From an uncultured Candidatus Saccharibacteria bacterium (lineage in GTDB: Bacteria; Patescibacteriota; Doudnabacteria; UBA920): 44,122 nt of DNA. The notes below the pieces were generated by a model. That model worked only from the letters and a program-made list of their open reading frames with translations, ran no database searches and had not been told where the DNA came from. Numbering within the stretch: position 1 is the stretch's first letter; each line of letters begins with the position of its first letter. The stretch covers positions 11,368 through 55,489 of the forward strand of contig CAZPRQ010000001.1 in the NCBI GenBank assembly GCA_964589415.1, written 5' to 3'. This document shows positions 5,389 to 38,157 of the stretch, piece by piece. Made by a program: the position numbers and the translations under genes.

Positions 5389-5526
5389 AGATTAACTAAT
5401 AATAATTCTCATCTAGTAAAAATAAAGTTTTCCCTCCGCAAGCCGCGGGGTATTGAAACCTGTATTAGCTCCTCGGCTCGCTTATCCCGCCATGGCGGGA
5501 TAGACTCGCCTACGTCGCGAATAAAA
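5389..5526 (-). promoter_or_regulatory. Structured rpsK-rpsD spacer (possible attenuator or autoregulatory leader)
   Basis: 20-nt perfect palindrome TATCCCGCCATGGCGGGATA (5483-5502). On the minus strand there is also a GC hairpin CCCCGCGGCTTGCGGAGGG followed by AAAACTTTATTTTT. Confidence 0.4.
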
Positions 5527-5994
5527 CTATACGCGTCTGGGTTTTTTGGGGCGTATACCGCCATGTGGAATGGGTGTTTGGTCTTTAATGGAAATAACGT
5601 TTAAACCACTTCCCTGCAGAGCCCTTACCGCGGACTCTCGTCCGCTGCCAATGCCCTTAATAAAAACATCAACTTCGGTCAAACCTCTCTCCTTTAGGCG
5701 CGCGAGAGTATCTTCCATGGTTTTTTGCCCCGCGTAGGGAGTAGATTTCTTAGAGCCTTTAAACCCAATTTTACCCGCGGAACTCCATAAAATAACATTA
5801 CCCGTAAGGTCGGTTACCGAAACTATGGTGTTGTTGTATGTGGAATTAATAAAAATTTTGCCTTTTGTAATTTTAGCTTTAGACTTCTTTTTCTTTGACT
5901 TGATTTTAGTGGCAACTTCAACAGAAGCTTCCGTCTTGGGAGCTTCTTCTGTTACTGCCGCTGTTAAGATTTGAGTTGTAGTTGTTTCTTCCAT
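5527..5994 (-). CDS. rpsK: 30S ribosomal protein S11 with a ~25-aa N-terminal extension
   Basis: GKIFINSTYNNTIVSVTDLTGNVILWSSAG...TPYAGQ...IKGIGSGRESAVRALQ...DQTPIPHGGIRPKKPRRV. Confidence 0.95.
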   Translation of the reverse strand: MEETTTTQILTAAVTEEAPKTEASVEVATKIKSKKKKSKAKITKGKIFINSTYNNTIVSVTDLTGNVILWSSAGKIGFKGSKKSTPYAGQKTMEDTLARLKERGLTEVDVFIKGIGSGRESAVRALQGSGLNVISIKDQTPIPHGGIRPKKPRRV

Positions 5995-6033
5995 ATTTTA
6001 TCCGCAAATTAATTGCTGATTGGTAAGCTGTGT

Positions 6034-6423
6034 CTAGGTTTTTTCCGCGGATGTCTTACGTCCACTGCCAGCCGTTTTTCTTACATTCCCTCTGCGCGTC
6101 CGGGAATTGGTTTTAGTGCGCTGTCCCCGTACCGGCAAACCCCGAATATGGCGAATCCCTCTATAAGCACCCATTTCTTTTAGCTGCTTAATGTTGAGCA
6201 GGATTTGCTGGCGCAGTTCGCCTTCTACCTTAAAATTCTTTTCTATATATTCACGAATTCTATTCAATTCTTCTTCGCTTAAGTCTTTGGTTCGCTTATC
6301 CGCGTTTATGCTTATCTCTTTAAGAATTTTTTTTGCCAAGGACAAGCCAATACCATAAATATACGGCAGGGCCGCTTCAATTCTTTTTTCGTTGGGGATA
6401 TTTACACCTGCGATTCTAGCCAT
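6034..6423 (-). CDS. rpsM: 30S ribosomal protein S13
   Basis: [26 protein letters not shown]...[26 protein letters not shown]. Confidence 0.95.
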
Positions 6424-6511
6424 ACTGTTAAGTTAAAAGTTTATCAAGTTATCAAGTCAAGGAAAGTTTATCAAGTAAGTATTTTTCGCCTACACCTTGA
6501 TAATTTATACA

Positions 6512-6625
6512 CTAGCCCTGTCTTTGCTTATGCTTTGGATTTTCACAAATTATATAAACTCGGCCAAATCGTTTGACTACTTTACATTTTTTACACATTG
6601 GTTTTACCGAAGATCTAACTTTCAT
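6512..6625 (-). CDS. rpmJ: 50S ribosomal protein L36 (37 aa; below the ORF-track cutoff)
   Basis: My translation of the minus strand gives [37 protein letters not shown]. This has the classic L36 Cys/His pattern and lies between infA and rpsM. Confidence 0.9.
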
Positions 6626-6692
6626 ATGTTTAAATAATTTGGCGGAAAGTATTCCGCGTCTTATAATAATTGAAATCTGGCGCTATTTTTAT

Positions 6693-6944
6693 CTACCTTA
6701 ACCTTCGAGTAATTCTACCTTTGCTTAGATCATACGGGGTCATTTCAATTAACACCCTATCACCCGGCAAAATACGTATCATGTTAATTTTCATTTTTCC
6801 TGCCAAATACCCCAAAACAAGCTGTCCGGAATCTAATTGGACGCGAAAAATAGCACTGGGTAAATTCTCTATGACTTTGCCCTCAAGTTCAATGCTATCT
6901 TTATTTTTTCCAGACTTCCCAAAGTCTTGCGTGCGGTGAGACAA
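6693..6944 (-). CDS. infA: Translation initiation factor IF-1 (start uncertain, apparent TTG)
   Basis: [64 protein letters not shown] is an S1-like IF-1 core. The only canonical in-frame start upstream of the core is TTG 6944, which has no SD. Confidence 0.88.
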
Positions 6945-15855: not shown

Positions 15856-17454
15856 CTACCCGCGGCCGCTTTTTGGGCCGACAAAACCTGTTAATTCATT
15901 TCCAATTATACCTTCAGTCTTAATATTTCTTAAAATAGCTCCGGAGGCCGCCAATTCTAAAAAGAAAAATATAAGAGCCTTGTCATTGTACCAGGTAACG
16001 TCAAAAAAAGCCGCCGCCGCAAGCCACAAAAAAACCAAACCCGCCTGCAGTACCAAAAACAGCCAGATTGTGTTTTCTTTTTGGTTTACTTTCACATATT
16101 TCCAAAACTCCCGGCAAACTGTTAGCCAAAAAAGCGCGAACAAAACCAACCCAAGCCAACCAAGCTCAACGGCGATATGTAAATACAAGTTATGAGCTGT
16201 AACGTACTTTTGCGGCAAATTATACCGCAAGTTTTTTTGTTCCGCCAAAAGTTCATATTTAACATTTGCCAACGCTTCGGGCGTAGCCGCCGAAACTAAA
16301 AAATTTGCCGCCCCGGTTCCAAGTGGATGCGAAATGGCATAGCGTGCGCTTTCTTTCCATATAAGTATACGCCCCGCGTTGGAAGTTTCATTTAAATCGT
16401 AAATGCTCTGGGCGCGATTTAAGAAATTTTCTTCAAACACCCCTCCGGCGCGTACAAATGCCAGCCCCCTATTTATGAGAGGAGAAATTGCAAATAATAC
16501 AACAATAATTAAAAGCGGCCAAAAAAAAGTTTTAACAGCTGGCCTCAAAAAAGTTTTTGCGTACGAAATTATTATTGCCAAAAGCGGGGCAAGCATTCCC
16601 ACCCACACGGCTCGCGTGCCGGACAAAATTAGCGCCAACGAAGCAAAACGGATTCCAGACCAAATAAAGCGGCGAAGTCTCTGGGATGCACCCATGGTTA
16701 GCGCGGCGCCTATACCAATTGCATAAACACACAAATAGGCAAACGACTGCGAATCCGGCATTATGCCAAACATGCGCAGCTGACGCCCATCGGTAAATGA
16801 AAACCAAGAATTGGAATACAGAGAAACGACGGCAAAATTCACTCCATAATACGCTTGTGTAAATGTGGTCGCCCAAAAAACCCAAAAAGTGTCCAGTGGC
16901 GTAAAAAAAGTGTAAGCTAACTGCCCAAAACCCGCGGCAATAAAAACCGATAAACTTACGGCCGCGTACCTAAAAAGCGCGAGCACCTGCTCTTTAGTTT
17001 GAATAGTTTGGACCATGACGAAATAAAACAAAAAAATATTAAAAAAGAACAAAAATTGCATTAGTGCTGGCAATCGAAATGACGACCAAATACTGCTAAT
17101 AAGTATAAGCGCGCCAAAGGCATACAAATACCGATCCCAAGGCAAAAACACTATGCGTTTTAAACTAAATTTATTTTCCTTAAAAAACCAAACTACAAAA
17201 AGCCAGGCCACCAGCGGCCGCCAGGCTGACAATGTTTCAAAAAAACCGTTAGGCACAATGACCATGGCCGGCAAGGAGGCCACAAGCACGTATACACCTT
17301 CCTCGAGTGGCCGAAAAACAATATAAAGCATTACAATGGCCATATTCACCCATACAAGCCAAGTTGGCCAGCCAAACACAGCCATTAGAAGCACGGAAAA
17401 TAGTTGCCAAACAACCAGTATGGCTATATAAAATTTTCTTGAAAAATTATGCAT
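15856..17454 (-). CDS. O-antigen ligase/polymerase-like (Wzy_C family) polytopic membrane protein
   Basis: At least 10 hydrophobic helices. AHNLYLHIAVELGWLGLVLFALF resembles the Wzy_C/O-antigen ligase motif. Overlaps the GT4 stop by 8 nt. Confidence 0.8.
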   Translation of the reverse strand: MHNFSRKFYIAILVVWQLFSVLLMAVFGWPTWLVWVNMAIVMLYIVFRPLEEGVYVLVASLPAMVIVPNGFFETLSAWRPLVAWLFVVWFFKENKFSLKRIVFLPWDRYLYAFGALILISSIWSSFRLPALMQFLFFFNIFLFYFVMVQTIQTKEQVLALFRYAAVSLSVFIAAGFGQLAYTFFTPLDTFWVFWATTFTQAYYGVNFAVVSLYSNSWFSFTDGRQLRMFGIMPDSQSFAYLCVYAIGIGAALTMGASQRLRRFIWSGIRFASLALILSGTRAVWVGMLAPLLAIIISYAKTFLRPAVKTFFWPLLIIVVLFAISPLINRGLAFVRAGGVFEENFLNRAQSIYDLNETSNAGRILIWKESARYAISHPLGTGAANFLVSAATPEALANVKYELLAEQKNLRYNLPQKYVTAHNLYLHIAVELGWLGLVLFALFWLTVCREFWKYVKVNQKENTIWLFLVLQAGLVFLWLAAAAFFDVTWYNDKALIFFFLELAASGAILRNIKTEGIIGNELTGFVGPKSGRG

Positions 17455-18592
17455 GCCGGGTATTATTTAAAATTGACAACGTTTCCTTCGCGCACTTTTC
17501 CCAAGAATACTCGTTAAGCCTGACATAGCCTTTTTGTGTCATGTCATGCTTGAGTGATTCATCCAGCAGCAATGCTTTAAGGGACTGCTTCATGTCAGCA
17601 ACATTTTCCGGGTTAAAATATACGGCCGCCTCCCCGGCAACTTCCGGCAGGCTGGAAACATTGGAACAAGCCACGGGCACAGCGGAGGCAAAAGCTTCCA
17701 ATATTTGCATACCAAAACCTTCATACAAAGCAGGCTGGACCAATACGTCTGCTCCTTTTAATATTTCCAGGCGCTCTCGGTCTGAAACATAATTTTTATA
17801 TATAACAATATCTTTATTGGCCTCCAGTTTTTGCAAAATGCTTTCAAAACGCCACCCGGGCTTACCTACAACCACAAGCTTATGCGGCAAGTCGGGCAGT
17901 TCGGTTTTTAACATACGAAAAGCGTCTATTAGACGCTCTAAATTTTTTCTTGGCTGCAACGTAGAAAGAAATAAAACGTAAGGTGTTGGTAATTTATTAA
18001 CTAATTGGTTTTGTGATTTGCTTATTAGCTGATTTGCTGATTTGCTTATTAGCTTATCAGCTGATTTGCTTATTAGCGTATTTGTTTGCTCAAATCCATG
18101 ATGAACCACAGAAACTTTTTCTTCCGATATATTGTACTCATTTACGAGATCTTTTTTAGTTGCCGAAGATACCGCTATTATGCGCGAGGCATTATTAACG
18201 GCAAACTTGGTTGACCACTCCAGAAACCAACGCATAAATGGCGTAAAGGTTTCGGGGTAATATTTCCAGGCAATGTCGTGAATGGTAACAACACATTTTT
18301 TGGGATGCACAAGGGGCAAAGCCGACGCGGGAATAAACAGGACATCAACCGGGCTGGTAAGCATTTCCCAAGAAAGCCTGACTTGAGTCCAAAAAAGCGG
18401 AAAGGGCATGACTTTAATACGAAAGTTTTTAGGCAAAGCTAAAAACCACTCCTCCGGCTGAGTGCGAAGGTATAATATATAAGAATTGACCTTATCTACT
18501 TCAGCCAAATGCAAAATTAGCTGCTTGGCGTAATGCTCAACTCCGGTTTTATGGGGCGTATTGGCCCGTTCTGCCTCTATGCCAATAGTCAT
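17447..18592 (-). CDS. Family 4 (GT-B) glycosyltransferase with a repeat-encoded interdomain insertion
   Basis: N-terminus is MTIGIEAERANTPHKTGVEHY. C-terminal EGFGMQILEAFASAVPVACSNVSSLPEVAG is the EX7E region. The insert LISKSADKLISKSANQLISKSQNQL sits between the two Rossmann halves. Confidence 0.88.
   Translation of the reverse strand: MTIGIEAERANTPHKTGVEHYAKQLILHLAEVDKVNSYILYLRTQPEEWFLALPKNFRIKVMPFPLFWTQVRLSWEMLTSPVDVLFIPASALPLVHPKKCVVTIHDIAWKYYPETFTPFMRWFLEWSTKFAVNNASRIIAVSSATKKDLVNEYNISEEKVSVVHHGFEQTNTLISKSADKLISKSANQLISKSQNQLVNKLPTPYVLFLSTLQPRKNLERLIDAFRMLKTELPDLPHKLVVVGKPGWRFESILQKLEANKDIVIYKNYVSDRERLEILKGADVLVQPALYEGFGMQILEAFASAVPVACSNVSSLPEVAGEAAVYFNPENVADMKQSLKALLLDESLKHDMTQKGYVRLNEYSWEKCAKETLSILNNTRHA
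18014..18077. repeat. About 2.7 tandem copies of a 24-bp word repeat, in-frame in GT4
   Basis: TGATTTGCTTATTAGC occurs at 18014, 18038 and 18062, separated by TGATTTGC and TTATCAGC. Encodes (L)ISKSxxxL x3. Confidence 0.85.
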
Positions 18593-26506: not shown

Positions 26507-27664
26507 CTATTTCGCTTCCCAACTGGTTTTTATTATTGTCTCCAGATCGCTGTATTTTAGCGAAAAACGCAACAAATTTTTCATTCGTTCATCATTGGCA
26601 ACAGTAACGGGCGCGTCGCCTATTCTGCGCGGCCCGATTTCCATGGGAATTATGCGGTTTAAAATCTCAGAAGCGCAATTAACAACCTGCTCCACGCTAT
26701 AACCCCTGCCGGTGCCAATATTAATTACAGAAAAATTATCCAACTCCGGCATGTGTAAAATGGCCGCGGTATGCGCTTGGGCAATGTCCAGTACGTGCAC
26801 ATAATCCCGAACGCATGTACCGTCAAAAGTATCATAATCGTTCCCAAAAACAGTAAGATGCGGCTTTTCACCCCGGGCCACTTTTAAAACATTTGGAATT
26901 AAATGGCTTTCGTGGGCAGAGCTAATGCTGCCGTCAAAATCAGTCCCGCACGCGTTGAAATAGCGGAAAACAACCGCCTGAAAACCGGAAAATTGACAAT
27001 AATACTCAATCAATTTTTCAGCCAAAAATTTGGAATAGGCATATGGATTATTTGGATCCAAACTTGCCGTTTCCCTAATTGGCATTTCCTGCTGCTGCCC
27101 ATACACTGCCGCGGTGGATGAAAAAACAATTTTTTTCACTCCGGATTCATCCATTGCCTTTAACAGTACAGCCGTATTTAAAACGTTATTGCTTAAATAA
27201 TCGCCGGGCTTTTCAACAGACTCGCCGACTTCTATGCTGGCTGCCATATGAATGACAAAATCTATATGCTCATTGGCAAACACGTCGCGAAGTAAATTCA
27301 TGTCCCCCACATTACCCTCTATAAACTTTGCCTCCGCGGGTATATTTTCTCTTTTGCCTGTGGAAAGATTGTCCAAAACAACTATTTTATGGCCGGCTTT
27401 TAAAAGGCTCCTCGCCACGTGCGCGCCAATATACCCGGCCCCGCCCGTAACCAAAACCGTGCATGAAATTTTCTCATTTTCTGAATTACTGATTTTCTGA
27501 TTTTCCGATTGGCTTATAAGCTTATTTGCCGATTCGCTTATTAACTCATTGTATTTTTCTAAAGTCAAAACCACGGCTTCCGGCTTTTCGTGTACGCTTA
27601 ATAAAATTCCCCCTCCCCGCTGTTTAACTTCGGCTATTAAATCTTCCAAATATTTATTGTCCAT
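26507..27664 (-). CDS. galE: UDP-glucose 4-epimerase fused to a ~45-aa N-terminal module through a word-repeat linker
   Basis: VLVTGGAGYIGAHVARSLLKAGHKIVVLDNLSTG and the YxxxK region (YAYSKFLAEK) are typical GalE motifs. They are preceded by MDNKYLEDLIAEVKQRGGGILLSVHEKPEAVVLTLEKYNEL plus ISESANKLISQSENQKISNSENEKIS. Confidence 0.85.
   Translation of the reverse strand: MDNKYLEDLIAEVKQRGGGILLSVHEKPEAVVLTLEKYNELISESANKLISQSENQKISNSENEKISCTVLVTGGAGYIGAHVARSLLKAGHKIVVLDNLSTGKRENIPAEAKFIEGNVGDMNLLRDVFANEHIDFVIHMAASIEVGESVEKPGDYLSNNVLNTAVLLKAMDESGVKKIVFSSTAAVYGQQQEMPIRETASLDPNNPYAYSKFLAEKLIEYYCQFSGFQAVVFRYFNACGTDFDGSISSAHESHLIPNVLKVARGEKPHLTVFGNDYDTFDGTCVRDYVHVLDIAQAHTAAILHMPELDNFSVINIGTGRGYSVEQVVNCASEILNRIIPMEIGPRRIGDAPVTVANDERMKNLLRFSLKYSDLETIIKTSWEAK
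27480..27545. repeat. Word repeat related to 18014-18077, in-frame in the galE ORF
   Basis: GATTGGCTTATAAGC and GATTCGCTTATTAAC each match GATTTGCTTATTAGC at 13/15, plus CTGATTTTC words. Confidence 0.7.
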
Positions 27665-27866: not shown

Positions 27867-27875
27867 GATTACAAT

Positions 27876-27906
27876 AAAACCGTCCCGGCGTTGGCGGGAC
27901 GGTTTT
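27876..27906 (-). terminator. Bidirectional rho-independent terminator after the giant surface-protein gene
   Basis: AAAACCGTCCCG (27876-27887) / CGGGACGGTTTT (27895-27906), 12-bp arms, 7-nt loop, with A/T runs on both sides. Confidence 0.85.
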
Positions 27907-27922
27907 ATATTTTATTTATGTA

Positions 27923-30900
27923 TTATTGGCCGAGCAGCAAACCAAGCAAGGTTTCGCGCTTTTTGAAAGCCGCGAACAGACCGGTTAAAGCAGCGGCAAA
28001 TATGCCGGCAGTCATGGCATCAGACCCGGTTTTGGGGGCTACGTAAGCGCCCAAAACTTGCGGGGTGTTTACGCGCACCGTTACGGTATTGCCATAAGTG
28101 TTAGTCATTACATAGCTTAGGTTTTGCGCCAAATAATATTTAACGCGAACCTTAAAGCTCTTGGTTACGGTACTGCCGGACGGAATAGTTACGGCAGGAT
28201 AAGTTATAACGTTTCCGGAAATCTGGCCTCCGCCGTTGTCCACAATATCCGCGTAAGGCAACACCTGCGACAAATCGTCGGTTATTACAAAGCTATTGGC
28301 CGGAGTATTACCGGAATTGGTCACTGTAAGTGTGTAAGTAATATAGTCCTCGCGGGCAGCCGGGGTGCTTTGGGCGTCAATATTTTTAGTATCGTTCCAA
28401 GCTTTCTTGCTATAGGTAAGGCTTACATTTCCACCGGCCACATTGGTGGTGAAAACCCAAGCGTCATCTTGGACTTCGCTTACGCTATCGCCGCTAACTC
28501 TGGCAATATTTTGAATGCCGTTAGAAACGCTTCCGTTTACGCGAACTTGGAAGGTTAAGGTGCGGCTTTGTCCGGCCATAAGGCTGCCAACATAATAATT
28601 CTGGTAATCGTTCCCTGAAACATAAGACAACCCTGTCGGCAAATAGTCGGTAACACGAACATTGTTTACAACCTGGTTGCCGGAATTGGTAACCACAATT
28701 TGGAATTCAACGGTATCGTTTCCATTTACCGTAACTGAGTTTGTAAACGAACCGTTTTGGCTTCGAACAGACTTCGTTATAGCCAGCTGGCGGAATTCAT
28801 TGGCAGGAACCGTGCTACCTTGGTTGGTTATGTAATACCAGTTATTGCAGGAATTATTTACGCAAGTATTTACATTGTTAACCGTATTGTTATTTCCGTT
28901 AATATTGGTGTTGTTAGTAACGGTGTTATTGTTGTTGCCGGTTACCGTTGTGGTATTGTTATTGTTATTGCAGGAATTGGTGCTGTTGTTGCAATTGCCA
29001 CCCGTAGAAGTTTCCGCTGGAATATTTACCGTGGCAGTCGCAAGTGTAGTGTTACACTCCGCGTCTATCATGTAGAAGCTGTGGCTTGAACCCAAGGCCA
29101 AACCGGTAACAGTAAATGAGCCGGTGTTATTTCCCGTCGCTATAACATTGCCCGTGGAATTCTGGGAAATTTTAATTTGATGACTGCCCGTAGAAGTCCA
29201 GTTTAAGGTGGCATTGTAAGTTGAACCGGATTTGACCACATTGCTGACATTTAAAGCAAAGTTAGAGTTTGGCACGCATACAGTGCTTGTGGTTTTGCGC
29301 AGGACAAAAGTGGACATTAATCCGCCGCAACTGGACAAATCATAGAGCTTAAAAACATAATCCTTGTTAGGATCAAAATTATTAAACTGCTTGCTGCCCG
29401 ACTGATTAACAGAGGCAACAAATACGACTTCCTGACCGTTGTCGGGATTTATATAACTTACTTTAACAGGATTATTTCCGGAAAAAGACCAGGAAATGTT
29501 TGTGCTGTACTTGCCACCAAATAATTCGGAAATCGCCGAAGCGGAAATAACACCATTGGTGTTTGGCACGCATACCGGTGCTGGGTTTACAACGACCACA
29601 GTCGGGCAATTGGCAGTCTGAGTTCCGCGCGTAACTCTTACATTATAAGTACCGGCTTGGGAAAAAGCGGCGGAATAGGCGGAAGAATTGTTGCCAACAT
29701 TGGTGTTGTTTACATTCCAGCTATAAGCGCCTTCCCCGCCTTGGGCGGTAAAATTAACCACCTGTCCGGTTTGGACATTGGTAGCCGAAGCCGAGCAAGT
29801 TAAAGTTGGCGTCTGAGCAGGCTGAGTAACAGCCACAGCCGGACAATTTACGGACTGGCTGCCGCGAGTTACCGTGGCAACATAGGAACCGGCCTGATTA
29901 AAAGTAGCTGTGTAATTTGAGGAATTTCCGCTAACCGAAGCATTGTTTACTTTCCAGCTAAACGCGCCCTCGCCGCCGGCAGCGGTAAAGCTAACGGATT
30001 GTCCGGCAAGAATTGAACTGGCAGAAGCTGAACAAGTAAGAGGGTTAGGCTGAACAGTGGTTTGAGAAACATTTACATTACAATAAACAGTTTGGCCGCC
30101 GCTATGAACCGCTACAGGATAATTACCGGGATTGGTAAAGCGAGTAGAAAAACTTGAACCGGTGCCAACCTGGGGATTTCCGCCGGTAATTGTCCACTGG
30201 TAAGCGCCTTCGCCGCCGGTTGCGGTTAAGTTCACAAATTGATTAACTTGCGCGTTTTGGTTTAAAGGAGAACATACCAGGGTTGCCGGAACACTAACAG
30301 TAACTCCGCAACTGGCGCTTTGAGTGCCGCTAATAACCCTGACTTCATAACTGCCCCTTGAAGCATAGGAAGTGGCAAAATCTCTGCCGCTGCCAATTAC
30401 TTTTGTGGAACCTATGGCGGTCCAATTATAAACTCCGGTACCGCCGGAAGCGGTGAAATTTACGGAAGTATAAGGCTCAGTAGTACGGTTTTGGGGGCTG
30501 CAAATCAAAGTTTGCACAACAGGAGTTGGGTCAACCGGTTCACTGCAATTTTTTACCCTAAAAGGCACAGTTCGTGATACACCGTTTATTTTTGCGGTCT
30601 TTGTCCAAGACCCTATTTGGCTTTCATTTTGATTATGGTTAAATACTCCGCCGGGACCTGACCAGGAACCATTGCTTCCAACAGTATGTCCATAATAGGT
30701 ATCCACTTCCAAAGTAGGATTGTTATTAAAAGAAGAACTCCATAAAATTTGCTTACCAATTAACCCGGCCGTGGCATTGCTTACGGTAAAAACAGGCACG
30801 TTCGTATTGGCACAAATATCCGTCATGCTAATGGATAAATTAAAACTTTCCTCGGAAGGAGTTGTGGGGCTGCCGCAATTTAAAGCAGCTCCGGCCGGCA

Positions 30901-31912
30901 TCCAGGATTCGCTAAGCAATTTAACCATATAACTTTGTCTGCCTTCGTTGTATACGCGGAAAGACTGCGACTGGCCGCCTTGGGCGGGATTTACTTCCCA
31001 TAAAGTAAAGCGATAAGGCTTTTCCGGCTGTATCCATCCTACGGTCTGGTTGCCGTTGTCTCCGCTGGCAAAAACGGTGTCGTTGCCGTAGTAATTGTTG
31101 CTGTTTAAATCCGGATCGGAAACGGTTACCAACACATCATTTACATTGGCGGTATTCCAAACAACAGTACCGTTGTACAAACACTCTGCGGTAGGACTGC
31201 CTAGCTGGGTGCTTATGTTATAGGAAGGATTAACCGGGGTTTGGCCTTGGGTCTTCACTACGCGCACTTTAAAAACTACAAATTTGCTTTGATCAAAACA
31301 GCCTGGCAAGTCGTTTAAAAACGCTTTTACGGCAGGCTCGCCGTTATGGGAAGTTACACTAACCGAACCGGCGCCATTGTCTGCCTGTCCAAACCAGTTC
31401 TGTAAATGGGCGGAGCCGGGAACTATTTCCAATTTTTCGTCGGCTGCCGTACGTATGGCAAAAGATCCGTTCACTGTTCCGGCATTGCTAGAAGTAACGG
31501 TGGAACCAATAACATGCTCAGGTTCGGCGGTGTCGTTTACGGTAACCACGGCATTAACGCCGCGGGCCGCGTCCGGACTGCCCGCCGGCTGGCCATTGTG
31601 TATATACACGCGCACTTCAAATTCGTCTCCACTTGTAGCATTCCAACCGCCATAAAGCTGATCGAAACTGGTTGGGTACTGGCCGTTTTTACCGGCCCAA
31701 ATTGCGGGCCAGTCTTTACATGCCTCATTGGTCAAAGTAACCGGATAAGGGTTTAATGTGGGGTTCTGGGGGGCGTTGGCGCAAGTAGCCGGAGTGTCGG
31801 CATAAAGCGCTTGGTAGGCGCGCGGGGCGCCAAATAAAGCCACCACGGCAAAAACCGCAACCGCAGTCGCGACTTTCCAATTCATGGTGACCTTTGAGAT
31901 AAATTTATTCAT
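27923..31912 (-). CDS. Giant secreted surface protein (1329 aa): tandem Cys-bounded Ig-like repeats, Asn/Cys-rich tract, DUF11-type repeats, C-terminal sortase sorting signal
   Basis: N-terminal signal/TM segment. Four ~75-aa repeats of the form L(I/V/T)CS...GG(T/E)G.Y.W...C. DUF11-like TVTNSGN..A..V.V.D.LP. C-terminus is APKTG plus a hydrophobic helix plus KKRE. Confidence 0.88.
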   Translation of the reverse strand: MNKFISKVTMNWKVATAVAVFAVVALFGAPRAYQALYADTPATCANAPQNPTLNPYPVTLTNEACKDWPAIWAGKNGQYPTSFDQLYGGWNATSGDEFEVRVYIHNGQPAGSPDAARGVNAVVTVNDTAEPEHVIGSTVTSSNAGTVNGSFAIRTAADEKLEIVPGSAHLQNWFGQADNGAGSVSVTSHNGEPAVKAFLNDLPGCFDQSKFVVFKVRVVKTQGQTPVNPSYNISTQLGSPTAECLYNGTVVWNTANVNDVLVTVSDPDLNSNNYYGNDTVFASGDNGNQTVGWIQPEKPYRFTLWEVNPAQGGQSQSFRVYNEGRQSYMVKLLSESWMPAGAALNCGSPTTPSEESFNLSISMTDICANTNVPVFTVSNATAGLIGKQILWSSSFNNNPTLEVDTYYGHTVGSNGSWSGPGGVFNHNQNESQIGSWTKTAKINGVSRTVPFRVKNCSEPVDPTPVVQTLICSPQNRTTEPYTSVNFTASGGTGVYNWTAIGSTKVIGSGRDFATSYASRGSYEVRVISGTQSASCGVTVSVPATLVCSPLNQNAQVNQFVNLTATGGEGAYQWTITGGNPQVGTGSSFSTRFTNPGNYPVAVHSGGQTVYCNVNVSQTTVQPNPLTCSASASSILAGQSVSFTAAGGEGAFSWKVNNASVSGNSSNYTATFNQAGSYVATVTRGSQSVNCPAVAVTQPAQTPTLTCSASATNVQTGQVVNFTAQGGEGAYSWNVNNTNVGNNSSAYSAAFSQAGTYNVRVTRGTQTANCPTVVVVNPAPVCVPNTNGVISASAISELFGGKYSTNISWSFSGNNPVKVSYINPDNGQEVVFVASVNQSGSKQFNNFDPNKDYVFKLYDLSSCGGLMSTFVLRKTTSTVCVPNSNFALNVSNVVKSGSTYNATLNWTSTGSHQIKISQNSTGNVIATGNNTGSFTVTGLALGSSHSFYMIDAECNTTLATATVNIPAETSTGGNCNNSTNSCNNNNNTTTVTGNNNNTVTNNTNINGNNNTVNNVNTCVNNSCNNWYYITNQGSTVPANEFRQLAITKSVRSQNGSFTNSVTVNGNDTVEFQIVVTNSGNQVVNNVRVTDYLPTGLSYVSGNDYQNYYVGSLMAGQSRTLTFQVRVNGSVSNGIQNIARVSGDSVSEVQDDAWVFTTNVAGGNVSLTYSKKAWNDTKNIDAQSTPAAREDYITYTLTVTNSGNTPANSFVITDDLSQVLPYADIVDNGGGQISGNVITYPAVTIPSGSTVTKSFKVRVKYYLAQNLSYVMTNTYGNTVTVRVNTPQVLGAYVAPKTGSDAMTAGIFAAALTGLFAAFKKRETLLGLLLGQ

Positions 31913-32343
31913 ACGCGTGTATATAATTAATATATTAATTAAATTAAATGATGATTAAATTAATGATGATTGAAGTGCAAAAGACAAAATTTACCTTTTG
32001 CAACAAAACCACCAGGGGAAGAATTTAGAATTTAGGATTTAGAATCTAGGATAAAGGCAACCTGCAGTACTTGATAACTTATGATTATACCCAATTTTAA
32101 TTATTTTGTCAATTACTTTAAATAATATATGGCTTAAATAAAGGATATTTTATTTTAAACCCCTTTATTCATAGTCATTTTTGATTTTTGTGGGCTTTTT
32201 CGCACTATCCTACCTAAATTGTTTAATAATGGCGATATTGTAGTTTGCCCATTTATGGGCCATAAAACTACATTTAAAGTCATTTTTTCCTTTCAATCCT
32301 AATTTACTATACAGAATTTCCTGCTATATCGCTATATCAAATT

Positions 32344-32382
32344 TAAAAAAAAGTGGGGGCCAACATAAGTAGAAGGCCCCCA
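32344..32382 (-). terminator. Rho-independent terminator of gene 32412..34628
   Basis: On the minus strand: TGGGGGCC-(13-nt loop)-GGCCCCCA followed by CTTTTTTTT. Confidence 0.85.
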
Positions 32383-32411: not shown

Positions 32412-34628
32412 CTATGGGTTCCAATTCCCTGTTCTGTCCCCATCCAACTTAATGAGGGCGCCCTTACCACCACCCCTTGTTAGCAGGAAAATGGCCAGGC
32501 CTGCGCCAACAGCAGCCAAAATCCACAACCACTTCTTACTTCCTTTCTTTTTGATTGTGAACTGGCGATCGCAGCGGACTTGGCAGGTTTTGCCGTTAGA
32601 GAGTCTGGACTCGCCAACCAAGGTAATGCTATATGTCCCTGGTTCAAAATCCAGCGTGTTAATGGTAAGCCGATCATCCGTAAGGTCAGCACGGGAGTAT
32701 CGCTTACCCCCAAGGGTGACGGTATAGTCCACCCACTCCGCCCGAAGGTTATCGAGCGCGAAAGTGAATGTAGCCGTCTCGTTAATCTTGAGACTCTTGG
32801 GCCCCTGCACATTGCAATTGGGACACACTTCAGGAATCTCAAAAGTGTTTGCCTGACCGTCGCCGGGGCAGGTAAACAACACGTTCCCATGCTTGTCTAC
32901 GCCCTGAACGGTAATAGCGTACCGAACTCCGGGGATAATCTCCTTGCCAGGTCGGAAAGTGAACGGGGAATGTAAACTCTCCCCCACCTTACGACCGTCA
33001 ATGAAGTAAACGAGCTTTGAAAGCCGACCGGCTTCGTCTAGGTAGTTGGTCACTACTTCAACTTGGCCGTTCTCCAGCACACTAACCCGCACACTATCAC
33101 ACGCAAGCGCTGGCGGAATGATCGGTGGCGGCGGTGGGGGTAGACGCTTCACTAGCGGCACACTGCACTTCACAGTGTAAGTGGTCGGGCTTCCTTTTGC
33201 CCTAACAGTCCCAGTGTAAACCAAGTCTGTCTGGGTTTCGGAAACTTGCGACCCCCGAAGGGTAAGTTCGAAGTTGTTACCGACAACACTGCCCCCAAAC
33301 ATCCACTCAGATTTTAAAACTTCAACATCCTGGTCCATGATGGGTTTATATTGCCCAATCTGTTCTTCAGACGTAAAGTCTTTTACCGAAGCTTGGATTG
33401 TTTGGCAGACAGCACTGACAGCCTCAGTACGAAATACCGTACCTTTAGTCTGTACCACATTGGCATTCCCGCCACACTCGAGACCGTTCTCCACCAAAAG
33501 CGGGATTTCGAGTAGCATGAGGCGCAAGACCTCAAACCGCTCTTGTCCCGACTTCAAGTTAAGACGATAACCCGCACGGGTAACACCACCGCGGCCGCTG
33601 CCTTGTTTCCAAATTAGGCTCGGCTTGTCGACCTTGGCGAGATTGAGCACAAATGGCCAGTTGTACTTCATGGCCAAGACAAGTCGCCGCTTCCACGCAT
33701 TTTTGATTTCCATTTCCTGGGAAGCATGCTCCCCAAGGATTTGGATTTCATCAATGTGTGTCAGCACCCGCTGAAAGTCCTTCCGCATTTCGCTTATGTC
33801 TGCGAAACGGTTACCAGCCGGCAAAGTCGCCCACTCAGTAAAAGGTTTAAAATCTTTAAAGAATGGGTTTGCGAGGTCAGTTTCGGGTTGGAGATCTTCT
33901 GGATAAGCGTATTTGGGATCCGCCTTTATCGCGTACGCCTTTGGGTACATGCCCGTTATGAGATGCACCAGATCTTCCGGCGACGTGACTTCCTTTTCTC
34001 GCCGTTCGAACTCTGCCATCTGCTCAGGGCTCAAATCTTTTTCCATCGAATCCCAAACCGTTAGCAAGCGTGGGGCGTCGAACACTTCATCACGACGGTC
34101 ATTCCGAACACTTCCTTGTCCCGGAACTTCGGGCGTCGATCGCACCGAGGTATCCGTAGGTTGAGAGGCGGAAGAATTACGCAGTCGCTGAATTGCTTCG
34201 TCGGCACGCAACCGCGCCTCGCGGGCTTCGCGTTCCAGACGTTGAATTTCCGTCTCAGAGTTCTGGTTTTGGGCCAGAACCACTGTTTCGGAAAGTGGCG
34301 TCGCCGTTGGAATACGAGAAAGCCTTAACCGGCTAGGTGTTGTGTAGAGGTCAGAGTTAACTTCGTTGTAAGCCAGGAGCACTGGCTCCTCAAGTTCCAA
34401 TGTCACCGGTAAATCCACATGAATATAGGGTAAGTGGAATTTTTCAGTAACCGTAAGAACCGTAGGCTTGTTGGCCACCACCATCAACGGAAACATCACT
34501 CCGATGGTGGGTATAGAGCTGGAAGTCGGTGGGATGAGTTGCACCGGCAACGCGGCGTTGGCCGTCGCTGTGGTGAGTAAAGCGAAAACGCAAATGAGGG
34601 CCACTAGGGCCCGGTTCGGGGTCGTCAT
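32412..34628 (-). CDS. Hypothetical surface protein, 738 aa, with signal peptide and C-terminal TM anchor; GC-rich
   Basis: AAGGAGAA SD 5 nt before the ATG. Signal peptide ALVALICVFALLTTATANA. Contains a coiled-coil segment, a PPPPPPIIPP linker, Ig-like C-terminal modules and the TM helix WLWILAAVGAGLAIFLL. No domain I can name. Confidence 0.8.
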   Translation of the reverse strand: MTTPNRALVALICVFALLTTATANAALPVQLIPPTSSSIPTIGVMFPLMVVANKPTVLTVTEKFHLPYIHVDLPVTLELEEPVLLAYNEVNSDLYTTPSRLRLSRIPTATPLSETVVLAQNQNSETEIQRLEREAREARLRADEAIQRLRNSSASQPTDTSVRSTPEVPGQGSVRNDRRDEVFDAPRLLTVWDSMEKDLSPEQMAEFERREKEVTSPEDLVHLITGMYPKAYAIKADPKYAYPEDLQPETDLANPFFKDFKPFTEWATLPAGNRFADISEMRKDFQRVLTHIDEIQILGEHASQEMEIKNAWKRRLVLAMKYNWPFVLNLAKVDKPSLIWKQGSGRGGVTRAGYRLNLKSGQERFEVLRLMLLEIPLLVENGLECGGNANVVQTKGTVFRTEAVSAVCQTIQASVKDFTSEEQIGQYKPIMDQDVEVLKSEWMFGGSVVGNNFELTLRGSQVSETQTDLVYTGTVRAKGSPTTYTVKCSVPLVKRLPPPPPPIIPPALACDSVRVSVLENGQVEVVTNYLDEAGRLSKLVYFIDGRKVGESLHSPFTFRPGKEIIPGVRYAITVQGVDKHGNVLFTCPGDGQANTFEIPEVCPNCNVQGPKSLKINETATFTFALDNLRAEWVDYTVTLGGKRYSRADLTDDRLTINTLDFEPGTYSITLVGESRLSNGKTCQVRCDRQFTIKKKGSKKWLWILAAVGAGLAIFLLTRGGGKGALIKLDGDRTGNWNP

Positions 34629-35133: not shown

Positions 35134-36561
35134 CTATTTTACAACTTGAGTAAGCTCGCCAAACACGACTAAGCGCTTTTGGGTGGTGCCAACCGGCCAG
35201 CAAGTAGAAAGAGCGACAGTAGAAACTCCCGAATTCATAAACTGCGCCTGGTCGTCGGGCTTGTATTCTTTTCGGCTTTTAACCACATAATGCAGCACGG
35301 CATCTTTGCCGTTTTTTTGCACTACGGTAACTTTAAAGGAAGTATAGTCGGCCAAATTGCCGAGCTTTGCAAACACGCTGTTGTAATTGCCTTTGGCCCA
35401 CACGTAATTGCTGGAGTGTCCGGAAATATATGAAGTCCCAATTTGTCCGGGAAGCGCCGTGCCGGGATAATGTATTACACCGCTTTGCAAATCTTTTTCA
35501 AAGTTGTCCGGATTGCTGCTCCATATAATGGGCACGTTTATTTTTAGCGACGGAATTTCCAATCGGCCGGGTATTTTCTCGTCAATGTCAAGCAGGGCGC
35601 CGTCTAAATTCGCGCCTCCAATGGGCGCCGGCCCTGTTACTACCGGCTGCCTATAAACAGTCGGATTTTCCATAGCTGTCTCCGGGCTGGAAGTCTGGGC
35701 AGGCGCGAAACTATTATTATAAACCGGGACGCTTTCGGAAGACTCGGCGTAAGTGTTAGCCCTCAAACCTTCAAGCGAAGGTTCAATAGTCGTTGACTCT
35801 CCCGCCACCCGGCCGTTTTCCTGCATTTGCTGGAGGGTAAAACGGTTCATAATAACTTCCATATCAAAATATTTTTCTACAATCTGCTCTTGCTGTTTTG
35901 TAAGCTTGCCGCCAGTGAGCGGATTGATGCCCTGAGAAATGGCCTGGCTGTCAGCAATGCCGAGACCCAATGTATCGTAGGATTTAGGATTCAAATTTAG
36001 TAAAAATTTCTGAAAATTGGACAAACCGTTGCCGGAATTATCCCTGTCGGCCGCCAAAACCGACTCGTCGGATACATCGTAATAGTAAGAACGGATCCAA
36101 GTTTCATAGGCTGCCATATTGCCTTTCATGATGCCTTCAAGCTCAGTCTGTTTAACTGTCGCGGCCTTGGGGGTGGACTTAAATATTTTGCCAAAATCCA
36201 ACGTTTGAAAAAAGAAAAAATACAGCGTTAAACCAATAACAAATACCAAAAGGTATGGCACTGCGGTGCGTATAAACCCGCCCGTACCGCCGCCCTTGGC
36301 AGCCTCAATATCGCGGCTAATTACTTCCTCGCGGGAATGACTGTCATTGCTTACCGCGGACGAGACAATTTCATGCGCATTACCCACCAATTCCTCACCC
36401 ACAGGTAAATTGGCTGGTCCAGGTGCGGTAATGGGGCTATTGGCATTTTCTTCATGCAAAAGCACGCTTCCATCATTTTCGGCTATTGGGCCGTTTAAAT
36501 TGAGCATGGAAGCTATTTCGCTAGTCGCAGCGGGAAAGCTTTTTTCCTTGGAATTAGACAT
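35134..36561 (-). CDS. Sortase-domain transpeptidase with a ~320-aa N-terminal extension (disordered region, TM helix, unknown middle domain)
   Basis: The C-terminal ~150 aa carry ISGHSSNY (His), VALSTCWP (TLxTC-like Cys) and KRLVVFGEL (Arg). TM helix is LLVFVIGLTLYFFFF. Confidence 0.85.
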   Translation of the reverse strand: MSNSKEKSFPAATSEIASMLNLNGPIAENDGSVLLHEENANSPITAPGPANLPVGEELVGNAHEIVSSAVSNDSHSREEVISRDIEAAKGGGTGGFIRTAVPYLLVFVIGLTLYFFFFQTLDFGKIFKSTPKAATVKQTELEGIMKGNMAAYETWIRSYYYDVSDESVLAADRDNSGNGLSNFQKFLLNLNPKSYDTLGLGIADSQAISQGINPLTGGKLTKQQEQIVEKYFDMEVIMNRFTLQQMQENGRVAGESTTIEPSLEGLRANTYAESSESVPVYNNSFAPAQTSSPETAMENPTVYRQPVVTGPAPIGGANLDGALLDIDEKIPGRLEIPSLKINVPIIWSSNPDNFEKDLQSGVIHYPGTALPGQIGTSYISGHSSNYVWAKGNYNSVFAKLGNLADYTSFKVTVVQKNGKDAVLHYVVKSRKEYKPDDQAQFMNSGVSTVALSTCWPVGTTQKRLVVFGELTQVVK

Positions 36562-36747: not shown

Positions 36748-38157
36748 TTGATCATGAATAAAATATTTAACTTTTTCTTTCCAACCGACGAAAACAAACT
36801 AAAACCAGGCATTTTGCAATCCAAACTAATTTTTGCATTGCTAATAATATTTATATTTTTCCAGCTTTTGGCAATTTGGGTTGAAGCCAATACGCCCATA
36901 AACGCCTCGGATATAACCATTCAAAATGTTTTATCGGCCATAAACAACGAACGCGGCTTGCGTAATTTACCCACGCTTCAAACCGATGAAAGACTTTCTT
37001 CCGCGGCAGGAGCCAAATCGGACGACATGATAGCTCGCAAGTACTTTAGCCACACCGATCCTGAAGGCAATTATATTTGGCCAAAAATTGTTGCTGCCGG
37101 CTATAACCCGTACAAAACACTTGGAGAAAATTTGGCCATAGAATTTACCAATACCGAGAGTATGGTGCAAGCGTGGATGAACAGTCCCACACACCGCGCT
37201 AACATAGTAAACGAAAATTTTCTCGACCAGGGCATGGGCGTAGCCTTTGGCAATGTCAGCCAAGGACAATATTTTTCCGCCGTAACAAATACGTTTGGTG
37301 CCATACAAATTAAAAAACCGGCCCCTGTACAAGTTGCCCAACAGGCACCGAAACCGGCAAGCCAGCCGGCACCCGAACCAGTTAAAGAAACGCCGGTTTT
37401 GGCCGCAAAACCATTACCGGAAAAACCCAAGTCCCAGACAATCACTGAAATCCCGCCAAAAGCTGAACCTGAAAAACAACAAACACAGCCAAAAACAGAA
37501 ATTACCAAATCCGCTCCCCCAACCATCCAGAACGCCACATCTGCCGCCTTGACCATTATTTCGCCCACCTTGCAAATTCAGGGAGAAATGGCAGGAGAAA
37601 GTATTCATGTTACCCTTAGTATTTTTATAACAGGCAATCCCTCCCTTGTAACCGCGCATGTTGGCGGTGGCAAATGGGAGCTTGCTGCCACTCTGGAGGC
37701 TTTGGAAGCAAGGGCTTATTCAGGGGAATTAACCATACCCTACGCGCCCGGCATAAATGAACAATCTATTAAAATTCTGGCGCAAGACAGCAAGGGCGGC
37801 GAGGCTGCTTATGAATTCCCGCTTAGAAAAATTTCTTTCGGCCGTTCTGAGTATACCACTCAGCAAATTCTTGATGCCTGGGCCAAACAGCAGGAATTGG
37901 CAACAAGCACTCCAGATCAACTAACTTTTTCCGGCGGCTCTGGGCTGCGACCAAACTTTAAATCCGACTCTTTGCAATTATTTTTTAAATACAACCGCTA
38001 CATAAGTTTGGGGTTTGGCATACTATTTTTACTGCTTATGCTTACGGATATTAACCTGGTTGTGGAAAAAAAGCTGCAGCGTTTTGACAAACGAGCCGGC
38101 AACATGTTCGTACTTTTACTTTCTCTAATTATTATCGCGTTAATGTATTGGTTGTAA
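36748..38157 (+). CDS. Membrane-anchored CAP/SCP (PR-1, YkwD-like) domain protein with a Pro/Lys-rich linker and C-terminal TM region
   Basis: NNERGLRNLPTLQTDERLSSAAGAKSDDMIARKYFSHTDPEG...GENLA...WMNSPTHRANIVN are CAP-domain motifs. The real start is probably ATG 36754, as the track starts at TTG 36748. Confidence 0.85.
   Translation: MIMNKIFNFFFPTDENKLKPGILQSKLIFALLIIFIFFQLLAIWVEANTPINASDITIQNVLSAINNERGLRNLPTLQTDERLSSAAGAKSDDMIARKYFSHTDPEGNYIWPKIVAAGYNPYKTLGENLAIEFTNTESMVQAWMNSPTHRANIVNENFLDQGMGVAFGNVSQGQYFSAVTNTFGAIQIKKPAPVQVAQQAPKPASQPAPEPVKETPVLAAKPLPEKPKSQTITEIPPKAEPEKQQTQPKTEITKSAPPTIQNATSAALTIISPTLQIQGEMAGESIHVTLSIFITGNPSLVTAHVGGGKWELAATLEALEARAYSGELTIPYAPGINEQSIKILAQDSKGGEAAYEFPLRKISFGRSEYTTQQILDAWAKQQELATSTPDQLTFSGGSGLRPNFKSDSLQLFFKYNRYISLGFGILFLLLMLTDINLVVEKKLQRFDKRAGNMFVLLLSLIIIALMYWL

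Follow-up and report, generated by a model that had tools for sequence, protein, structure and literature searches.

Covalent anchoring of surface proteins by sortases is textbook Gram-positive biology, the textbook sorting motif being LPXTG. Dedicated, locus-encoded sortases with variant signals are also familiar, among them the class B SrtB-IsdC system (NPQTN) and class D enzymes (LPNTA), and to our knowledge the nucleophile position is a cysteine in every characterised sortase. We know of almost nothing on how the ultra-small, host-dependent Patescibacteria build their surfaces. The nearest known case to the locus described here is Clostridioides difficile SrtB with its (S/P)PXTG substrates, an enzyme that cleaves the T-G bond of SPKTG and PPKTG but does not cut LPETG (PMC4155245). 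Recognition of APxTG was confined, in the literature we found, to a weakly active engineered SrtA mutant (PMC9126251).

The window (the whole stretch of DNA analysed, 44,122 nucleotides) encodes a giant, bead-like surface protein, P0001, whose source cell is a Candidatus Doudnabacteria bacterium, ultra-small and uncultivated. A sequence-only reading had proposed P0001 as the likely substrate of a sortase encoded two genes upstream (P0002). Motif conservation, linkage and co-occurrence support this pairing, and we hold with good confidence that P0001 is a Sec-exported, rod-like surface protein, most likely processed by this long sortase. Retranslation of 27923-31912 on the minus strand gave an open reading frame free of internal stops, and the coordinates, the length of 1329 aa and the position of APKTG (28025-28039) all agreed with the earlier reading. 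The features, in window positions, are:

27874..27908, minus strand: putative hairpin terminator with a 14-bp stem, 15 nt past the P0001 stop (pattern scan)
27923..31912, minus strand: P0001 gene, surface protein of 1329 aa, with homologues in 55 of 60 relatives
27926..27964, minus strand: cytoplasmic tail KKRETLLGLLLGQ, residues 1317-1329 (KKRE plus TLLGLLLGQ)
27965..28024, minus strand: hydrophobic membrane-retention segment SDAMTAGIFAAALTGLFAAF, residues 1297-1316, mean Kyte-Doolittle hydropathy 1.4
28025..28039, minus strand: sorting pentapeptide APKTG, residues 1292-1296 (family conservation)
28064..28822, minus strand: two DUF11 (CLIPPER) domains, residues 1031-1283 (Pfam, TIGR01451)
28823..29026, minus strand: Asn/Thr/Cys-rich low-complexity tract, residues 963-1030, with Cys 974, 981, 1017 and 1022
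29027..29578, minus strand: two Cys-clamped modules, residues 779-962, with Cys 781/862 and 879/953 (Cys spacing)
29579..30514, minus strand: four tandem Cys-clamped PKD-type Ig repeats, residues 467-778 (Pfam, alignment)
30515..31798, minus strand: three N-terminal beta-sandwich modules, approximately residues 39-222, 223-350 and 351-466 (AlphaFold2)
31799..31912, minus strand: signal peptide, residues 1-38, with a basic n-region, h-region VATAVAVFAVVALFGA and probable cleavage after ALYA
32084..32112, minus strand: putative promoter, a perfect sigma-70-type consensus match (TTGACA-17-TATAAT) about 170 nt upstream of the P0001 ATG
about 32335-32380: GC hairpin plus T-run, 3' of the stop of the gene upstream of P0001 (pattern)
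32412..34628, minus strand: P0003, secreted protein of 738 aa with a C-terminal TM anchor, between the P0001 and sortase genes
35134..36561, minus strand: long sortase P0002, 475 aa, two genes upstream of P0001
35416-35418, 35200-35202 and 35173-35175, minus strand: P0002 catalytic residues H382, C454 and R463, respectively (conservation)

The scissile bond of APKTG is predicted to be T1295-G1296, and GAYVAPKTGSDA was taken as the candidate P0001 peptide substrate of the long sortase. In the sorting-signal (CWSS) test, P0001 has the 20-residue hydrophobic segment and KKRE together with an unusually long tail of 13 residues, and departs from strict LPXTG in having Ala at position 1, with P, T and G kept; run on the whole protein, the curated anchor models (Pfam Gram_pos_anchor, TIGR01167) gave no match at E <= 0.01 (Pfam, NCBIfam). 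The tail had been read as ending at KKRE, whereas nine more residues, TLLGLLLGQ, lie beyond it. Across the family the tail consensus is KKRKxLxxLIF[TAN], and the tail, counted from its first basic residue, has a median length of 12 residues in the APKTG family compared with 6 in the LPRTG class. xPxTG is kept in 65 of the 67 complete related C-termini examined (P 65/65, T 63/65, G 65/65), and 37 family tails spell APKTG itself. Position 1 of the 65 xPxTG tails is A in 48, P in 10, S in three, I in two, T in two and L in none, SPKTG and PPKTG being minority spellings. The extended motif round the pentapeptide reads G-x-[FY]-[VI]-A-P-K-T-G-[AGP], and all nine database homologues end in APKTG or APRTG; the concern that related copies might lack a conserved C-terminal signal is not borne out by these tails. 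We scanned all 3463 ORFs of the 1.17-Mb genome for xPxT[GASN] followed by a hydrophobic run and a basic tail, which left two credible sorting signals, P0001 and one LPRTG protein on another contig. The search of the proteome for other (A/L/V)PKTG C-termini, recommended at the outset, found P0001 to be the sole (A/P)PxTG protein of this 94.6%-complete genome. As in the SrtB substrates of C. difficile (PMC4155245), a small residue or Pro replaces Leu at position 1, position 3 is often Lys, and the substrates are adhesin-like wall proteins; unlike in C. difficile, the main spelling in the Doudnabacteria family is APKTG.

Co-occurrence of substrate and sortase, a check that had also been recommended, was followed in 60 relatives, where the two genes show matching distributions: 53 carry both, five neither, two the substrate alone and none the long sortase alone, counts that overstate the statistical support because related genomes are non-independent samples. 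In both substrate-only relatives the gene sits on a contig of <=11 kb. In at least 37 relatives, spanning five of the six families of the order, sortase and substrate genes lie on the same contig and strand, about 10 kb or less apart; in at least two (G020, G032) the distance is 175-205 kb on one contig. The wide spacing in those two counts against the pairing, as does the arrangement here: the two genes are non-adjacent, being separated by the gene of the 738-aa protein and two gaps of ~500 bp, and each, judging from sequence, is apparently served by a promoter and a terminator of its own. Outside the order, DUF11 proteins in other Patescibacteria have LPxTG-like ends and no long sortase nearby. 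That tag and long sortase are kept together across the lineage points to a natural specificity variant of a known anchoring system.

The order of modules first proposed for P0001 stands, and we located its two DUF11-type repeats, Asn/Cys tract and two further Cys-bounded modules by Pfam, TIGR01451 and Cys positions; besides the tail end, the descriptions of the N-terminus and of the Ig-like repeats needed correction. The h-region is 16 residues long with a hydropathy of 2.5, and the N-terminal start is conserved among homologues, consistent with a Sec signal peptide that is probably cleaved after ALYA. The N-terminal ~460 aa, previously called unknown, are predicted to form three all-beta modules in the structure prediction that had been suggested (AlphaFold2, 12-sequence alignment, mean pLDDT 81). 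No Pfam family was found in this region, either in P0001 or in seven homologues, and Foldseek matches to the N-terminal 430 residues are generic multi-Ig, S-layer and adhesin structures with TM-score <0.2. Domain annotation, likewise suggested, returned PKD (strongest over 704-761), PKD_3 and BiPBP_C for the repeats and DUF11 beyond them (Pfam, with NCBIfam for DUF11). The four Cys-bounded repeats are confirmed in number and in their Cys pairs (471/535, 547/611, 627/690, 706/769), while their type is more exactly PKD; over residues 468-778 they share 36-40% mutual identity, with both Cys invariant. The two Cys-clamped modules of residues 779-962 have no family match and are kept in homologues P0004, P0006 and P0009-P0012. 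DUF11 was matched in two Pfam stretches (best 1058-1143) with TIGR01451 concordant, and the pair is the most strongly conserved region of P0001 among homologues. The DUF11, or CLIPPER, domain folds like CnaA, a fold also seen in the pilins of Gram-positive bacteria (PMC12617251). We found no PDB match for the DUF11 region of P0001 by phmmer. Conserved positions suggest candidate isopeptide triads, K1047/D1089/N1135 and K1169-1170/D1212/N1271, and the Lys/Asp/Asn spacing in both domains is plausible against K715/D748/N806 of 9IFR, as a comparison of spacing rather than a residue-level structure alignment.

P0001 has both the stalk and the anchor of a fibrillar adhesin, the stalk in its four PKD repeats, its two DUF11 domains and five other beta modules, the anchor in its sorting signal. 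Like such adhesins (PMC12617251, PMC9210967), it begins with a signal peptide, continues in a long Ig-like stalk that includes DUF11 and PKD domains, and ends in a sorting signal. Unlike them, no known adhesive tip domain was found in P0001, and it is the anchor-proximal DUF11 pair, not the tip, that is most conserved. P0001 may be a host-attachment adhesin, which is one reading of a long all-beta protein. It is possible, albeit on balance unlikely, that with unchanged anchoring chemistry P0001 is instead a general surface coat, S-layer-like or glycocalyx-like, and not a host-binding adhesin. Such a role would fit a single-copy protein that nearly all genomes of the order encode, that has its own predicted promoter, a perfect consensus match, and a predicted strong terminator, that is 33% Asn, Thr and Ser with 46 N-x-S/T sequons, and that has no recognisable adhesive head domain (Pfam, Foldseek). 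In Haloferax, archaeosortase A is the dedicated sorting enzyme that processes a C-terminal signal of the S-layer glycoprotein, and Luef and colleagues reportedly saw surface layers on groundwater ultra-small bacteria by cryo-EM in 2015, both of which count in favour of a coat. S-layer proteins (7ptp, 4aq1) are among the Foldseek matches; these matches are however generic Ig strings at the low TM-scores given above. Moreover, homologues range from 683 to 2354 aa, with a highly variable number of modules in the middle region, a pattern usual in the stalks of fibrillar adhesins and atypical of proteins that form a lattice.

The sortase claimed two genes upstream is real: P0002 matches Pfam Sortase PF04203 (MEROPS C60) with E = 3.4e-19, and H382, C454 (the only Cys in the protein) and R463 form a His-Cys-Arg triad that is invariant across 38 homologues. 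P0002 consists of a disordered cytoplasmic segment (residues 1-92), a TM segment (96-120), a helical ectodomain with an invariant DNSGNGLSNF motif (136-248), a disordered linker (254-318) and the catalytic barrel (325-475). Strong matches to its N-terminal extension occur only inside the order (in 24 of 24 sampled genomes). In Foldseek, solved sortases match the predicted barrel with E ~4e-11, and PDB sequence matches are to class C and class D sortases. P0002 fits no curated sortase class, its scores against the NCBIfam class models being far below every cut-off (bits/cut-off: class D 47.1/165, class C 46.4/160, class E 31.9/160, class F 21.9/166), and it barely passes the generic TIGR01076 model (39.6 versus 39.35). 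Unlike C. difficile SrtB, it matches no class B model and has 475 aa, a cytoplasmic tail, a helical ectodomain and a 65-residue linker; C. difficile SrtB is the sole sortase of that species and has seven or eight substrates, whereas P0002 is one of two and has one predicted substrate. The arrangement is like SrtB-IsdC and class D systems in that a second sortase lies near its own substrate, with a variant signal beside a general LPXTG-type system. It differs in that the 'general' partner here has Ser for the catalytic Cys, and in the class D score of P0002 (47 bits versus 165).

That partner, the second sortase of the genome, is a short enzyme next to LPRTG proteins, with Ser replacing the catalytic Cys in a sequence, LTLQTS[YW]P, that is conserved in 21 of 21 copies examined; its His, its Arg and the sequence flanking the Ser are strictly conserved. 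We know of no demonstration of activity for a sortase with a Ser nucleophile. The motif classes split by sortase type in 60 loci: the 43 sorting signals found at 40 long-sortase loci open with A, P, T, I, S or K and never with L, whereas each of the 18 found at 20 short-sortase loci opens with L. This split does not bear out the caveat that the long sortase might prefer another motif. We tentatively suggest, as a scheme that is rather doubtful when taken whole, that two orthogonal sortase systems operate side by side in the ~1.2-Mb genome of Doudnabacteria, with about one substrate each: a Ser-nucleophile short sortase for LPRTG, and a long Cys sortase reading APKTG plus extra determinants (for example, the conserved 12-residue cytoplasmic tail of the substrate and the conserved cytoplasmic and helical segments of the enzyme), the APKTG protein being the main wall-fixed fibre that meets the host. 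The pairing could be different, with the long sortase serving both LPRTG and APKTG and the Ser-type paralogue inactive or otherwise employed, or with the Ser-type enzyme handling APKTG, as the Ser in all 21 copies and the DUF11 domains common to P0001 and the LPRTG protein might suggest. We consider this improbable, since each motif class lies beside its own sortase type without exception in the 60 loci, the conserved His, Arg and Ser surroundings argue that the short sortase works, and none of the 60 relatives has the long sortase without an APKTG-class substrate.

The best barrel matches of P0002 are class C pilus sortases (A. oris SrtC1 2xwg, C. perfringens SrtC 6ixz/7d6p, S. pneumoniae SrtC-3 2w1k) and, as in class C pilus systems, enzyme and substrate genes are clustered; unlike in those systems, there is no lid and no pilin motif or E-box, and the genome has one giant substrate. 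A polymerising, class C-like long sortase, joining APKTG proteins head to tail into a covalent pilus-like fibre, seems to us quite improbable. It would accord with the nearest solved relatives in sequence and fold being class C pilus sortases (7d6p, 6ixz, 8t28, 2xwg), with sister-family loci L038, L040, L041 and L042, which hold two or three APKTG-type proteins, including ~200-220 aa proteins with a single DUF11 that resemble a tip and shaft pilin set, and with the CnaA-like fold that DUF11 shares with Gram-positive pilins (PMC12617251). However, the only substrate in this genome is 1329 aa long, P0001 lacks a YPK pilin motif and an E-box, P0002 lacks a DP[WFY] lid motif, the class C model score is 46 bits against a cut-off of 160, and class A, D and E structures match P0002 nearly as well as class C. 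That the P0001 tail is a plain C-terminal membrane anchor, with APKTG structurally conserved and uncleaved, is highly improbable: a tail longer than classical signals, ending in a conserved hydrophobic motif and matched by no curated LPXTG-anchor model, would fit, but P, T and G are nearly invariant exactly where a sortase would recognise them, in contrast to a freely drifting helix sequence, and the sortase with which P0001 co-occurs has P0001 as its only predicted substrate.

The analysis establishes the gene and its domain anatomy, the conserved motif, the linkage of P0001 to the long sortase and the co-occurrence of the two, and the split between L and A/P at the two kinds of sortase locus. 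Under the preferred reading, processing by the long sortase, we infer from the sequence the cleavage of P0001, its wall nucleophile, its covalent anchoring and its role (attachment fibre or surface coat). The gene would be transcribed alone, from the consensus promoter to the strong terminator, which could work on both strands because its arms are A/T-rich. The signal peptide (residues 1-38) would be taken off during export, about eleven beta-sandwich modules, several of them disulfide-clamped, would fold extracellularly, and the precursor would be kept in the membrane by the C-terminal helix and basic tail. C454, with H382 and R463, would cut APKTG between T1295 and G1296, and the sortase would pass P0001 to an amine of the peptidoglycan precursor, which would fix it covalently to the wall and place the conserved DUF11 pair at its base; four penicillin-binding-protein transpeptidase genes in the genome indicate that the cell makes peptidoglycan. 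Ala or Pro, not Leu, at position 1 would separate P0001 from the LPRTG protein of the Ser-type sortase.

The locus marks the probable main wall-fixed surface protein of the whole lineage, a target for localisation and host-binding work, and P0002 is a natural sortase apparently preferring Ala or Pro at motif position 1. A natural APKTG enzyme that ignores LPXTG would, if true, be a useful orthogonal protein-ligation tool, and the LPRTG/Ser-type and APKTG/Cys-type long sortases within one genome offer a clean system for sortase specificity evolution. The intervening P0003 has no family match and no sorting pentapeptide and is for that reason not a predicted sortase substrate; its slot is filled by other genes in loci L092-L094.

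P0001, the 1329-residue surface protein that had been proposed from sequence as a sortase substrate, is encoded by an open reading frame at 27923-31912 (reverse strand) with no stop inside. The genome that carries it, on contig C1, comprises 1.17 Mb in 82 contigs and is 94.6% complete. The elements that the sequence-only reading had named in P0001 were all found, where it had placed them:

Signal peptide: N-terminus of P0001
Four tandem Cys-clamped repeats, PKD-type by Pfam: residues 468-778
Two more Cys-clamped modules: Cys 781/862 and Cys 879/953
Asn/Thr/Cys tract: residues 963-1030
Two DUF11 domains: Pfam E = 2e-15, TIGR01451 E = 9e-14
APKTG: residues 1292-1296, nucleotides 28025-28039 (reverse strand)

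The four repeats, whose Cys pairs (471/535, 547/611, 627/690 and 706/769) are invariant, were established by direct alignment, in which they share 36-40% pairwise identity; self-BLAST of P0001 gave no internal matches. The N-terminal region lies where it had been placed, but it can no longer be called unknown, since AlphaFold2 (12-sequence alignment, mean pLDDT 81) models its 430 residues as all-beta, in three beta-sandwich modules with linkers at residues ∼223-226 and ∼347-353. Neither Pfam nor Foldseek gave these modules a specific identity, and the Foldseek matches were generic multi-Ig ones with TM-scores below 0.2, from which function is not readable. DUF11 has recently been described under the name CLIPPER (PMC12617251): a stalk domain that resembles CnaA and contains an intramolecular Lys-Asp-Asn isopeptide bond. 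Both DUF11 domains of P0001 have a candidate triad of this kind, with Lys, Asp and Asn conserved at plausible positions; searches of PDB sequences with the whole protein and with its C-terminal 290 residues returned no match even at E = 10. With about eleven beta modules plus the low-complexity tract, mature P0001 would by our estimate be a rod tens of nanometres in length. At its C-terminus APKTG, which lies in the peptide GAYVAPKTGSDA, precedes a hydrophobic segment (20 residues) and KKRE, as claimed, but the tail does not end there, nine residues extending past KKRE.

Homologues of P0001 were found in 55 of 60 related genomes, spanning five of the six families of the order. The C-terminal ∼290 residues are the best conserved part of these proteins, and the N-terminal ∼300 are conserved too; the middle differs in module number, and total length runs from 683 to 2354 residues. 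We took C-terminal regions from 53 relatives, which yielded 67 complete C-termini. The sorting signal is kept in these related copies: in 65 of the 67, xPxTG stands before a hydrophobic helix that leads into a basic tail, with the residues given below.

Residues of the xPxTG motif in 65 tails of the P0001 family
Position 1: A 48, P 10, S 3, I 2, T 2, L 0
Position 2: P 65
Position 3: K 48, R 7, others 10
Position 4: T 63, others 2
Position 5: G 65

Exact APKTG occurs 37 times among the C-termini of the family, and each of the nine homologues taken from a large protein database has APKTG or APRTG as its ending. Conservation of the motif reaches upstream (G-x-[FY]-[VI]-A-P-K-T-G-[AGP]), whereas the helix sequence drifts freely, indicating that the constraint sits on the pentapeptide. 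At seven long-sortase loci of sister families (L038, L039, L040, L041, L042, L065 and L066) there are two or three APKTG-type proteins each, including proteins of ∼200-220 residues with one DUF11 domain directly after the giant protein, a layout that recalls tip-plus-shaft pilin sets.

The gene two upstream of P0001 on the same strand (35134-36561), read earlier as a sortase, does encode one (P0002, 475 residues; PF04203, E = 3.4e-19). An alignment of 38 sequences shows its H382, C454 and R463 to be invariant, and P0002 has no cysteine other than C454. Against the curated class models P0002 scored 47 bits for class D, 46 for class C, 32 for class E and 22 for class F, where the cut-offs are ∼160; among solved structures it comes closest, in sequence and in fold alike, to sortases of classes C and D, and no lid motif was found in it. 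The AlphaFold2 model (mean pLDDT 64, folded parts 75-93) divides the protein as follows:

Residues 1-92: disordered cytoplasmic segment
Residues 96-120: transmembrane helix
Residues 136-248: small helical ectodomain with invariant DNSGNGLSNF
Residues 254-318: disordered linker
Residues 325-475: catalytic barrel

At least 569 database proteins match P0002 at E ≤ 1e-10, the best 120 of them being long forms. The disordered cytoplasmic N-terminus (∼95 residues) has a conserved start with the consensus M......KKYP..T.EVAKMLG. In the helical ectodomain the invariant motif reads DNSGNGLSNFQK..LNLNP, and a disordered linker of ∼65 residues then leads to the barrel; weak matches to this motif region occur in proteins of unrelated size from other Patescibacteria.

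The pairing of P0001 with this sortase is supported across the 60 relatives, in counts that are descriptive, as are those for the signal classes, because the relatives are not independent. The long sortase was found in 53 of them, all 53 also having a P0001 homologue, and in none did it occur without the substrate. Neither gene was found in five (G031, G035, G040, G045 and G054), and the substrate stood alone in two (G046 and G050), in both cases on contigs of no more than 11 kb. At least 37 relatives have the pair on one contig and strand, within ∼10 kb of each other and often adjoining (for example in G002, G015, G029 and G030). Linkage is thus common but not obligatory, since in the relatives G020 and G032 the two genes lie 175-205 kb apart.

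Sortase homologues number exactly two in this genome: P0002 and a short enzyme of 201 residues on contig C8 that adjoins an LPRTG protein. We compared 20 short-sortase loci in the relatives (178 kb) with 40 long-sortase loci (343 kb). All 18 signals at the short-sortase loci begin with Leu (LPRTG 16, LPKTG 1 and LPLTG 1, the last spurious, in a multi-pass membrane protein). In contrast, none of the 43 signals at the long-sortase loci begins with L, the first residue being A (33), P (5), T (2), I, S or K, and the possibility that the long sortase prefers a different motif was therefore not borne out. The two signal classes differ also in their tails: counted from its first basic residue, the tail has a median length of 12 residues in the APKTG class, with the consensus KKRKxLxxLIF[TAN], as against 6 in the LPRTG class. 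This split holds in several families. In other Patescibacteria, outside the order, most DUF11 proteins have LP[NRKATMDH]TG as their ending, a few having other endings or no signal, and no long sortase was found within 7-8 kb of them. Strong matches to the long sortase's N-terminal extension came only from within the order, where 24 of 24 sampled genomes gave them, matches elsewhere being weak and partial.

Outside the window, on locus L072 of contig C8, the short sortase lies at 4593-5198 (reverse strand) and its neighbour, a 488-residue DUF11 protein ending in LPRTG, at 5251-6717 (reverse strand). The short enzyme has Ser at the position of the catalytic Cys (LTLQTSYPLGTALKR), with His and Arg kept; in each of the 21 copies from 20 relatives this stretch is LTLQTS[YW]P or close to it. 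The Ser form is also present in the Patescibacteria families f28 and f100; family f14 has Cys.

When all 3463 open reading frames of the genome were searched for xPxT[GASN] ahead of a hydrophobic run and basic tail, two credible sorting signals emerged, those of P0001 and of the 488-residue LPRTG protein on C8, and a BLAST search of the genome found P0001 to have no paralogue. PEP-CTERM-like tails (GTPIPE[TA]STW..., a helix, then YRRRQ) are carried by two paralogous secreted proteins, at C8:31904-32638 (L072:6905-7639, reverse strand) and C74:258-974 (reverse strand); NCBIfam gave a weak PEP-CTERM match (E = 0.003), and a relative of the same genus has a clearer tail of this kind (PVPEPATY...YRRRRG). 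Exosortase-type processing was considered on account of these two tails and set aside: no exosortase gene (PF09721) was found in the 94.6%-complete genome, and the motif of P0001 is of the sortase type.

The best-supported reading of these sequence data is that P0001 would be anchored by the classical chemistry of sortases, the recognition residue alone being altered. P0001 would be exported through Sec and retained in the membrane by its C-terminal helix and tail; C454 of P0002 would then attack the T1295-G1296 bond and transfer the protein to an amine of a peptidoglycan precursor. Four PBP-type transpeptidase genes in the genome indicate that the cell makes peptidoglycan. The nearest characterised case is SrtB of C. 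difficile, which cuts the T-G bond of SPKTG, PPKTG, SPSTG and SPQTG but does not cleave LPETG (PMC4155245); SPKTG and PPKTG are minority spellings in the P0001 family. In the literature that we found, the only enzyme with APKTG itself among its substrates is an engineered SrtA mutant (PMC9126251). We looked in the literature for natural APKTG signals and for substrates of sortases in Patescibacteria/CPR and found no description of this system; the papers on that group that we consulted for sortase mention it only in passing. Given the SrtB precedent and the lack of an earlier description, we rate the chemistry as ordinary and known, and the variant part as the recognition motif, unusual and lineage-wide, together with a long, unclassified enzyme.

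As to role, P0001 may be a host-binding stalked adhesin, consistent with a family in which the middle is variable and tip and base are conserved. Alternatively, it may form a general surface coat, a reading favoured by its universality in the order, its single copy, the strong promoter (a consensus match) before its gene, its richness in Asn, Thr and Ser with 46 sequons, and the failure to find a known adhesive domain in it. That the APKTG system builds a pilus is improbable, there being a single substrate in this genome and no pilin, E-box or lid motifs found.

The P0001 gene looks like its own transcription unit, as judged from pattern matches only: a hairpin and T-run 3′ of the gene upstream, a perfect TTGACA-17-TATAAT at 32112-32084, ∼170 nt 5′ of the ATG, and a 14-bp hairpin at 27874-27908, 3′ of the stop. 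No obvious Shine-Dalgarno sequence was seen before the conserved start. The ∼170-nt leader from the promoter match to the ATG (31913-32083, reverse strand) holds two short tandem repeats, at 31938-31971 (period 15) and 32020-32052 (period 7/14). Next to the long sortase gene and divergent from it, 36748-38157 (forward strand) encodes a secreted CAP/YkwD-domain protein with a Pro/Lys/Ala-rich linker and membrane helices at its C-terminus. Two in-frame tandem arrays with an 8-nt unit (24-nt, 8-residue period) lie elsewhere in the window, at 18010-18084 within a glycosyltransferase gene (17447-18592) and at 27468-27510 within the N-terminal extension of GalE (26507-27664), and the linkers that they encode are similar, (L/K)IS(K/Q/N)S(A/E)N(Q/K).
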